Assembly: GCA_024644345.1 (NCBI GenBank)
Contig: JAHELE010000001.1
Span: 18,659-82,658, forward strand
From: Actinomycetes bacterium
GTDB lineage: Bacteria > Actinomycetota > Actinomycetes > JAHEKZ01
Direction: 5' to 3'
Length of the DNA stretch: 64,000 nucleotides
Positions 5,182 to 6,768 of this stretch are shown here, piece by piece; position 1 is the stretch's first letter; every line of letters begins with the position of its first letter. Under the pieces are notes generated by a model. It saw only the letters and a list, made by a program, of their open reading frames with translations, was not told where the DNA came from and made no database searches. A program made the position numbers and the translations under genes.

Positions 5182-6768
5182 GTACGAAGAGATCGGGACG
5201 AAGGCAGGGGTCGCTGTCGCCGGTCCTCGACCCGAGCGATAGACCGGGGCCACCCGCGCCCGGTACTCCTTCCCGTTTGTCAGCCCCTTGACCCGGACCT
5301 TCCGCGCAGTGGAGCCCACTCGGTAGGTCTGGTCGGTGGACGAGACGGTGATGCGGTACGCCTTCACGCGTCGGTCGGTGTTCGGCGCTCCCCACCGCAC
5401 CAACCCCGAACGGTCACCGCGCTCCACACGGACGTTTCTTGCCGGAGCCGTGATGCCACCGTCGACGTTGGTCACCGTCCACCAGGTGCTCTTCAGGCCC
5501 GCGGCCCAGCGGAAGCTGTCGGCGGACACAGTCACGGTGCTCTTGCTGCCCACGAGGCCGACGGAGAGAACCCGGCCACCCCACGGACCATTGCCGTCGC
5601 GACCCAGGACCTTGAGTTTCTTCACAGTGCCGATCTGCGGCCAGGCGCTCTCGATCCTGGTGGAGCTGACCGAGGTCGACCAGCTGTGCCCCCAGTTCGC
5701 CGCCCCGGTCACGACACCGTCGTACGGGTCCGGCTGAGCCACGAGGTAGGGGCGGCTTCCTGCAACCGAGTACCCACCGTTCGCCGAGCTGAACATGGCG
5801 AACACCGGCTGGCCGGCATGGCGGAGGTACTGATGGGCGGTGGCCCTGACGGCGGCCACCTCCACATTGCTCTCGCTGGATATCGGCCCGTACACCTGGC
5901 AGGACGTGGTGTCACAGATGTCATAGGCGCGGTGCGCCGCTCGCGCGTTCACCTGTGCGAGGAGTGCGTAGCTGCGGGCCGCCACGGCCTGCGCTCTCAG
6001 GGCTGCGTCGGTCCACGAGCTCGGCACCTCCGACGACACGACCGAGCGCAGGTAGTCCTCGAGAAGCAGCGAGTTGACCGCCAGCACCGACGAGGAGCTG
6101 GGCTTGACGTCGAGAAAACCGTGGTAGGTCCGCTTGGCTCCGGTCGACGTCTGGACGCCGATCCGGCTCTTGCCGACCGCGGAGCCGGTTCGCCACCGGA
6201 TCGACCCACTGAGGCCGCCGACCACCTTGACCGCCTTGACTGACGAGACCGCCCATACCGCGAGCCCACCGCTGCCCTTGACGGAGCGGAACGTCGAGAC
6301 CGGCTCGCCACCCGCCTTCGACGGAAGGGAGACGGAGTTGCCACGGTGACTGAGCGACAGACCCGACTTGGCGGGGACGACGACACCGGTGCCCTGCGGA
6401 GTGCTCCGCACGATGCCGGAGAGACCGACCTTGATCTGTCGGTCGGCGCCCACCTCAGCCAGGCGCGTGCCGGGGTAGTAGAACTTCACGATCTGGCGGT
6501 AGCTCTTGCCGAGTCGACCCATCCCCTCGGCACCGAACTGCGACATCCCGATGCCGTGTCCGTAGCCCAGCCCGGACAGCTGGAACACGCCGCTGGAGGG
6601 TCGTGCGTAGGCCTCGCCGGACGACCCGGCTCGGGCCGGTGCGGAGATGAGAGAGAGCAGACCCCCCACAAGCCCGGCAACCGCTGCAGCCGCCAGCACC
6701 CTTCGGAGGTGTCGCTGGCTGAGTCGGTCGGTGGGTCCGTGATTCACCACACCCGTCACACCAGTCAC
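4084..6768 (-). CDS. secreted SpoIID/LytB-domain protein with FN3 domain and three C-terminal ~110-aa repeats
   Basis: Signal peptide ([26 protein letters not shown]). SpoIID hallmarks are present: [13 protein letters not shown]...[42 protein letters not shown]. Then an FN3-like segment ([34 protein letters not shown]), then three repeats ending ...VDLVGYY / ...VDVLGWF / ...FRVVGWYS. Confidence 0.75.
   Translation of the reverse strand: [894 protein letters not shown]

Follow-up and report, generated by a model that had tools for sequence, protein, structure and literature searches.

A probable circular permutant of the SpoIID/LytB glycan-cleaving module, encoded beside an amidase, in Actinomycetota

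Among described systems, the closest to the protein considered here are the SpoIID proteins of endospore formers, represented by solved structures (4RWR; 5I1T/5TXU) and by SpoIID of B. subtilis. They act as lytic transglycosylases on glycan strands and require that these have been denuded by an amidase (PMC6221140, PMC6934232). In the C. difficile enzyme the catalytic glutamate is E101 (PMC6221140, PMC6934232) and Y194 has been reported to be necessary for orienting the sugar for catalysis, while the catalytic-glutamate motif has been defined as GVVxxEMP/S (PMC6934232). A homologous core, and a unit bearing the motif GHGxGMSQ (here termed the GHG unit), also occur in a protein encoded within a 64-kb stretch of DNA, the window, from an Actinomycetes bacterium (contig JAHELE010000001.1, positions 18,659 to 82,658). 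It shares with endospore SpoIID the catalytic glutamate motif, AQAVAAR(T/S)Y, CQxY, SSxxGG and GHGxGMSQ…YY, and the same chemistry is expected of it. Unlike endospore SpoIID, the window protein carries its GHG unit at the N-terminus, has an additional fibronectin type III (FN3) domain and three repeats, and shows no sporulation context; moreover, its β-rich subdomain occupies about 124 aa before the core, whereas the solved SpoIID chains begin only about 60 residues before it. We consider that the protein is very probably a true circular permutant of the SpoIID/LytB glycan-cleaving module, one that would operate with an amidase partner.

Canonical members of the family that are not linked to sporulation, including chlamydial SpoIID (PMC6635528), are secreted enzymes of the vegetative cell wall, as is predicted for the window protein. 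Those of Thermus thermophilus (WP_244452477), Nostoc (WP_179075772) and Deinococcus spp. consist of the same three building blocks and resemble it in the RxYRG…VNxLxLExYL transition and in a first strand of IRVLL type, but their order is β-core-GHG rather than GHG-β-core and they are mostly single-module proteins of about 320-585 aa. In the lytABC operon of B. subtilis, LytB is encoded beside the N-acetylmuramoyl-L-alanine amidase LytC, and the two share wall-binding repeats. The relationship between LytB and LytC has been considered earlier (PMC6934232). The locus described here resembles that arrangement in having a family protein beside an amidase, with repeats common to both. LytB differs in its canonical order and in carrying wall-binding repeats of another type at its N-terminus; the repeats of the present pair are unnamed and located C-terminally, and its amidase belongs to Amidase_2.

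The gene is a single uninterrupted open reading frame (ORF) encoding 894 aa on the minus strand (Table 1), and its product is predicted to be secreted; an RR-containing n-region, a hydrophobic stretch and APARA/GS were recognised by eye as features of a signal peptide. The segment singled out in the original prediction (5478..6591) corresponds to residues ~60-430. Both GHGxGMxQ and AQAVAARSY occur once each in the entire window, and both lie inside this gene. The segment bearing the former (residues 68-100) precedes the β-rich region and the core, as had been predicted, while the motif is C-terminal in the three solved SpoIID structures and in the family model TIGR02870. The usual SpoIID motifs follow the β-rich stretch, with the Pfam family SpoIID (PF08486) matching residues 226-316 (86.6 bits, cutoff 23) and TIGR02669 (SpoIID/LytB domain) matching from residue 230 (178.5 bits, cutoff 83.3; best stretch, residues 230-495 against model positions 2-233 of 270), so that both family cutoffs were passed. 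For TIGR02870, the spore_II_D equivalog, the best stretch is residues 64-105 against positions 296-337 of 338, and the total of 101.9 bits is under the cutoff of 234.75, such that by score the protein is not SpoIID sensu stricto. The prediction that an FN3 domain rather than a GHG motif follows DSFRW also held; the FN3 domain directly follows the new C-terminus of the permuted module.

When all PDB sequences were searched with phmmer, the only enzymes matched were the three SpoIID entries, and these were matched in two pieces. Residues 65-104 aligned with 279-318 of the 331-residue B. anthracis SpoIID (4rwr_A), and residues 63-105 with 286-328 of the 330-residue C. difficile SpoIID (5i1t_A), while residues 230-350 aligned with 62-198 of 4rwr; E-values for the individual stretches ranged from 2e-6 to 4e-6, far beyond chance. 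The order is swapped relative to SpoIID because the N-terminal piece of the query aligns C-terminally and the core piece aligns ahead of it. A de-permuted sequence was then constructed in silico by joining residues 106-434 to residues 57-105. It matched 4rwr in a single stretch (chain positions 62-317, 70.7 bits, E 1.4e-18), as against two stretches totalling 64 bits for the native sequence, with a single 1-residue gap located at the artificial junction (glkstwwtvtnpssgvfqlsglgyghg versus elrssdftwkqegdki-vvttkgfghg), and it was likewise colinear with 5i1t and 5txu. Since colinearity with the family models is regained only after de-permutation, the protein constitutes a permuted variant of the family and not a typical member.

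In tblastn searches of plasmids, the de-permuted query crossed the junction in one piece in genes of Thermus thermophilus, Nostoc and several Bacillota, while its alignment with Rhodococcus ruber ended at position 327, just ahead of the junction. The Thermus and Nostoc proteins (350 and 382 aa) exhibit a signal peptide, a β-rich region starting from VRVLL and LRIAI, respectively, the core and a C-terminal GHG…HY(F/Y). The Rhodococcus protein shows FVGFGHGHGRGMGQ…HYYGGT, the β region and the core (…LRSDWFTV), followed by an additional C-terminal region. Three segments of the permuted family were also compared with a 50-sequence canonical Deinococcota alignment by local profile-profile alignment (hhalign). 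The GHG unit matched Thermus 299-342 of 349 (99.5%, E 2.7e-22), the core matched 100-297 (100%, E 1.1e-48) and the β region matched 29-93 (56%, E 1e-4, with IRVLL and RxYRG as anchors), which together yield an exact cyclic map onto canonical Thermus SpoIID/LytB. The original prediction was correct in reporting a β-rich stretch of about 115 aa but not in calling it an insert, since the Thermus and Nostoc proteins have a corresponding β region that separates the signal peptide from the core; the stretch is therefore the enlarged N-terminal β subdomain of the family.

The end of the canonical C-terminal motif (…YYPGTRLAE) is joined by a linker of about 5 residues, VGADR, to the canonical first strand QIKVGL, and in the structure model this region forms a strand-turn-strand with pLDDT ~98 (see below). 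The module now starts and ends within the turn of the hairpin that the final core strand (…STWWTV) makes with the pre-GHG strand (VFQLSG…), and the moved part is only the ~45-residue strand-GHG loop-helix-helix-strand unit. The two homologous segments have thus exchanged places, neither persists as a second copy, and about 5 residues join the old termini. In having swapped segments, a short linker at the old termini, new termini in a surface hairpin turn and preserved fold elements, the protein resembles textbook permutants generated by duplication and truncation; unlike those, the SpoIID/LytB fold has no reported permutation in the literature searched, and no intermediate with two GHG units was found.

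Structures were modelled with AlphaFold2 (AF2) for residues 40-440 of the window protein, using 70 homologues, and for the canonical Thermus protein P0121. Mean predicted local distance difference test scores (pLDDT) were 94.1 and 93.6, and predicted template modelling scores (pTM) 0.89 and 0.87, respectively; within the window model the GHG unit had pLDDT values of 93-98. The lists of secondary structure elements assigned by DSSP are cyclic shifts of one another. Thus, strand 301-304, the GHG loop, helices 315-323 and 328-335 and strand 340-343 of Thermus correspond to strand 22-28, the GHG loop, helices 38-46 and 51-58 and strand 63-66 of the window model, and the β strands, followed by the core series H-H-H-E…E-H-E-E-E-H-E (H, helix; E, strand), occur in identical order in both. 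Foldseek searches of the PDB gave significant matches only to SpoIID structures for each model (5i1t at E 6e-6 for the window model). The canonical Thermus model aligned to 5i1t with a target-normalised template modelling score (TMt) of 0.76 and a root mean square deviation of 2.8 Å over 274 columns, and the permuted model with a TMt of 0.57 over 242 columns, a loss that is expected because the Foldseek aligner is order dependent. After SpoIID, the second structural match for both models was SleC (9h68), a spore-cortex lytic transglycosylase of C. difficile, with a probability of up to 1.0 for the Thermus model, a TM-score of only ~0.25-0.34 and a marginal phmmer match (E 0.44). SpoIID and SleC may be remotely related.

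The predicted catalytic residue E247 aligns with E101 of C. difficile SpoIID (5txu numbering) and does not vary among 71 homologues (E208 in A1 numbering). H279, C285 and C290 align with the C. difficile zinc ligands H134, C140 and C146; in the permuted family D286 never varies, and the two cysteines C285 and C290, which form a CxxxxC motif, vary hardly at all. The position of the zinc ligand H145 is occupied by S289, and that of Y194 by an invariant phenylalanine, F326, while Thermus retains tyrosine. With F326 and S289 in place of Y194 and H145, details of substrate handling may differ. The zinc-site motif, yCxdxxHCQ in C. difficile, reads DICDTTSCQ here and CATEACQ in Thermus; a metal site with other ligands, or a disulfide, is possible at DICDTTSCQ. 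A literature search on H297/E88 mutants produced nothing relevant.

The gene for an N-acetylmuramoyl-L-alanine amidase (Amidase_2) lies 60 nt upstream on the same strand. The C-terminal regions of the two proteins are related, with residues 552-892 of the SpoIID-like protein and 572-897 of the amidase sharing 26% identity over 342 aa (BLASTP, E 2e-27), in addition to register-shifted alignments. The repeats gave no Pfam family at E≤10 and no sequence relative in the PDB at E≤1. They presumably constitute a wall-targeting module, and the shared triple repeat may be an undescribed actinobacterial wall-targeting repeat. Of 80 related loci, 11 have an amidase adjoining the permuted SpoIID-like gene, in one of them as a fusion; the same adjacency is seen in Rhodococcus and in the closest public contig, L084. 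This suggests that SpoIID-like protein and Amidase_2 form a conserved two-enzyme unit. The amidase-adjacent cases include L052 (4753-7800, the fused ORF), L006, L029, L039, L045, L049, L056, L057, L083 (1-1487), L084 (3374-4885) and P0112.

Given that SpoIID needs amidase-denuded glycan and that an amidase is adjacent, the most likely mechanism is a co-targeted pair of an amidase and a glycan-cleaving enzyme. The amidase would strip peptides, the SpoIID-like enzyme would then cut the bare glycan strands, and the shared triple repeat would send both to the same wall sites. From the conserved catalytic residues and the amidase neighbour we predict lytic transglycosylase or muramidase activity on denuded glycan. 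The alternative that survives best, and one that we nevertheless hold to be unlikely, is that the permuted protein serves mainly to enhance or scaffold the adjacent amidase, without catalysis of its own, as B. subtilis LytB does for LytC. Recurrent adjacency and occasional fusion with Amidase_2 (P0112 among these cases), the shared C-terminal repeats and the phenylalanine and serine at the Y194 and H145 positions would suit such a role, as would the stimulation of SpoIIP by SpoIID in one assay (PMC6934232), but the C. difficile proteins failed to reproduce amidase stimulation (PMC6934232), the catalytic glutamate is invariant and the substrate-side surface, formed by the GHG loop and the FxxFSSxxGG loop, is highly conserved. 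Enhancer and glycan-cleaving roles are, moreover, not mutually exclusive.

For the permutant reading it is essential that the relocated unit remains part of the catalytic domain. As an alternative, the N-terminal GHG segment could be the remnant of a degenerate duplicated SpoIID domain, one that folds independently or has lost its function, and the core would then need no GHG unit. In favour of this, a duplication-based permutation has a stage with tandem copies, and paired SpoIID-like genes of this kind exist in loci L002, L025 and L027; in addition, the packing of the GHG unit is not directly visible but deduced from the scores of the models and from residue couplings. Those couplings were obtained by mean-field direct coupling analysis (DCA) of 309 non-identical permuted modules from the retrieved proteins and loci (effective number of sequences, Meff, 251; 351 columns). 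When pairs fewer than 6 positions apart are set aside, the top 100 couplings comprise 26 between the GHG unit and the core and one between that unit and the β region (binomial P 3e-4, given the possible pairs). In a control in which the GHG units were reassigned among the remainders of the modules, 0-1 GHG-core couplings exceeded 1.0 (maximum ~1.06), as against 25 in the real alignment (maximum 2.93), while the real GHG-β couplings reached a maximum of 0.98, which is at the noise level of the shuffles.

The coupled pairs are readily interpreted. Y90 is linked to A255, R258 and V262, and V94 to V262, and this i, i+3, i+7 spacing places the second helix of the unit on the AQAVAARSY helix. Residues of the GHG loop couple with the FxxFSSxxGG loop (I73 with M325 and V335, S76 with N330, F78 with S328), a loop that includes the counterpart of C. 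difficile Y194. A coupling between L67 and W429 indicates that the N-terminal strand is paired with the final strand of the core, as in the canonical hairpin. The GHG unit also carries 12 residues that are invariant across 71 homologues, in which overall identity falls to 39%, and it is invariably situated 171-214 residues ahead of the core motif. Together with the couplings to the core and their absence towards the adjacent β region, the high pLDDT of the unit within a model of high pTM, and the failure to find a relative that retains a C-terminal GHG motif, these observations led us to reject the remnant domain, which we regard as very improbable. We conclude, on a strong but indirect basis, that the GHG unit most likely packs on the core as in canonical SpoIID. 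The possibility of a separate degenerate domain had been raised in the original prediction, along with the terms circular permutation and domain swap; the former term is borne out by the swapped matches, the de-permuted alignment, the models and the DCA, and the latter is inappropriate.

The proposed rearrangement can be summarised as follows. The final ~45-residue unit of the canonical order would have moved to the N-terminus, directly behind the signal peptide, where it would still contact the core through its second helix, the GHG loop and its strand, such that the same catalytic domain would be formed. A single origin is most likely, in which a canonical gene would have been duplicated or fused and then lost both ends. 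With the conserved GHG unit thereby gone from the C-terminus of the module, that end would be where FN3, repeats and other modules are added.

The permuted order is widespread. The GHG motif precedes the core in 107 of the 120 best homologues, in 67 of 73 SpoIID-type ORFs from 80 genome loci and in 124 of 143 proteins drawn from the best 150 cluster representatives, the unclassified proteins being fragments or misses of the regular expressions. It follows the core in none of the 336 relatives examined, and no intermediate carries GHG on both sides. Thus, all 298 classifiable actinobacterial relatives share this order, whose lineage-wide occurrence the original prediction had proposed to check, and a second GHG segment after DSFRW, sought both here and in those 298, was not found. 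For the best cluster representatives, the GHG motif always lies ahead of the core motif at the spacing given above, and many of the best homologues end ~15 residues past the DSFRW-type motif. Among 120 Deinococcota homologues of the Thermus protein, by contrast, GHG is located before the core in none and after it in 113, and the canonical order also occurs in the Nostoc and Bacillota proteins checked. Its presence in Bacillota, Cyanobacteria and Deinococcota suggests that the permuted order is the derived state.

When GTDB species were scanned, each represented by one genome, 587 relatives were confirmed, and the best 80 of these all belong to Actinomycetota. They include the genera Nocardioides, Marmoricola, Kribbella, Cellulomonas, Cellulosimicrobium, Georgenia, Kineococcus, Piscicoccus and Friedmanniella, and extend to Frankiaceae, Geodermatophilaceae, Acidothermaceae, Acidimicrobiia and Thermoleophilia (Gaiellales, Solirubrobacterales). 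An exhaustive search of 1.84 billion cluster representatives yielded 22,420 clusters at E≤1e-3, of which 792 reached E≤1e-30; the actinobacterial clade constitutes the best 150 of these 792 50%-identity clusters, and nearly all of those 150 give a single colinear match over query positions 5-395. As far as sampled (Actinomycetes, Acidimicrobiia and Thermoleophilia), the permutation is old and fixed in Actinomycetota. In a phage collection, three weakly matching gut-phage contigs aligned across the junction and therefore have the canonical order.

The idea, also raised earlier, that the swapped order is an artefact of assembly, frameshift or gene calling in the window has a negligible probability and was rejected, since, even if the closest contig (L084) has split genes suggestive of frameshifts, the gene is a single uninterrupted ORF, its nearest orthologue cluster (P0241, 83% identity, 890 aa) derives from metagenome-assembled genomes (MAGs) of 'Actinomycetes bacterium' on many independent contigs, and the order is conserved across the lineage in 298 relatives from isolates and MAGs, including type-strain assemblies of Nocardioides, Cellulomonas, Kineococcus, Kribbella, Georgenia and Rhodococcus. 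A protein identical to that of the window is not on record.

Several points weigh against the permutant reading, or against its extent, in addition to the two active-site substitutions described above. The placement of the GHG unit, and its superposition in three dimensions, we infer from homology, pLDDT and pTM values and co-evolution; an Meff of 251 for 351 columns is below the usual comfort zone for DCA, a method that, moreover, relies on alignment information similar in kind to that used by AF2. At the profile level, the homology of the β region to the canonical N-terminal region is weak, as the 56% above indicates. The surveys list best matches and the patterns used in the genome scan were built from the permuted family, so that canonical copies may exist within Actinomycetota, or permuted ones beyond it, and the single origin is tentative.

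Permuted modules also occur in other settings. They often form the C-terminal end of proteins measuring 900-1,400 aa (1,000-1,400 aa for P0245, P0258, P0292, P0337, P0367 and others), and further relatives join them to FG-GAP/VCBS (PF01839, PF13517) or LGFP (PF08310) repeats. Across these diverse architectures the module behaves as a mobile, self-contained unit. Tandem permuted SpoIID-like genes are seen in several Nocardioides-type genomes, at L002 (4616-5770, 5611-7107), L025 (5815-7038, 7057-8343) and L027 (4550-5770, 5899-7107), an arrangement that could seed permutation by duplication and fusion.

The gene pair lies within a cell-envelope cluster of the window (657..17170), in which nine larger ORFs were checked, seven of them flanking the pair (Table 1), and synteny in L084 is alike. 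There, the ORFs of 503 + 303 aa for the amidase and 481 + 288 aa for the SpoIID-like protein (3374-5870; 6001-8533) are probably split by frameshift errors of that metagenome assembly. Among the ORFs checked, nothing points to the context of endospore formers (SpoIIP, SpoIIM, engulfment): the neighbours are envelope genes and, directly upstream, the Amidase_2 gene, and the best 80 relatives belong to Actinomycetota.

Table 1. Features of the SpoIID/LytB-family gene, its amidase partner and the surrounding cluster (positions in the window).
Feature	Position	Strand	Residues	Remarks
SpoIID/LytB-family gene, whole	4084..6768	-	1-894	signal peptide, GHG unit, β-rich subdomain, catalytic core, FN3, three C-terminal repeats
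Signal peptide or membrane anchor at the N-terminus	6628..6768	-	~1-47	inferred by reading the sequence
Relocated GHG unit	6454..6600	-	57-105	strand, GHG loop, two helices, YYPGT, strand RLAE
β-rich subdomain	6082..6453	-	106-229	begins QIKVGL; 13 β-strands in AF2 model
Catalytic core	5467..6081	-	230-434	Pfam, TIGR02669, PDB and hhalign matches
Codon of E247, predicted catalytic glutamate	6028..6030	-	247	SVVSSEVPS versus motif GVVxxEMP/S
Segment aligned with zinc site	about 5899..5934	-	H279-C290	includes DICDTTSCQ
Codon of F326	5791..5793	-	326	aligned with Y194 of C. difficile
Fibronectin type III domain	5215..5445	-	442-518	Pfam PF00041, E 1.6e-8, 35.1 bits, cutoff 25
Three ~120-aa C-terminal repeats	4087..5166	-	~535-894	BLASTP to neighbouring amidase
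N-acetylmuramoyl-L-alanine amidase (Amidase_2), 899 aa	6829..9528	-		Pfam PF01510 at 255-405, E 2.5e-12
FbiB-like F420 ligase/nitroreductase fusion	within 657..17170
309-aa ORF	within 657..17170			no Pfam match
NDP-sugar pyrophosphorylase	within 657..17170
Two LytR-CpsA-Psr (LCP) ligases	within 657..17170
CDP-alcohol phosphatidyltransferase	within 657..17170			with DUF5941
ABC-2 exporter pair	within 657..17170

A permutation of SpoIID/LytB appears to be undescribed in the literature. Searches revealed no paper linking SpoIID with circular permutation, all co-mentions of 'permut*' being statistical, and in the literature retrieved for SpoIID and actinobacteria the protein is discussed only in a Bacillus/Clostridium context. 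No NCBIfam or Pfam model has the permuted order, and the proteins are labelled 'SpoIID/LytB domain-containing protein'. Annotation of the actinobacterial clade of this family is likely to mislead, given that PF08486 covers only the first ~95 core residues and TIGR02669 matches as an incomplete domain with a separate stray piece; the limits of domains, choices of start codon and 'partial domain' flags are likely to be affected.

The window protein is a permuted variant of a known enzyme fold, a modest evolutionary curiosity and not a new kind of system. It nevertheless provides a well-supported natural circular permutation in a peptidoglycan-cleaving fold for which only three structures have been solved. 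The permutation shows that the fold tolerates new termini at the pre-GHG hairpin and that the canonical termini must be adjacent, and such tolerated termini are useful for engineering and for understanding the folding of the domain. If the order is fixed across Actinomycetota, it represents a rare genomic change and a possible marker for the phylum. More speculatively, and with rather less than even confidence, a single ancient permutation may be a fixed, phylum-wide signature of Actinomycetota that replaced the canonical form, in which the freed C-terminus opened the way to multidomain wall hydrolases (fusions with FN3, repeats, LGFP, FG-GAP and amidase) and the altered connectivity near the GHG loop may change the dynamics or regulation of the substrate groove. 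The pairing of an amidase with a SpoIID-like protein through a common, unnamed triple repeat points to an actinobacterial two-enzyme module for glycan degradation, comparable to SpoIIP-SpoIID and LytC-LytB. In Actinomycetota, where SpoIID-like enzymes appear to be unstudied, it offers a possible handle on the turnover of the vegetative cell wall.

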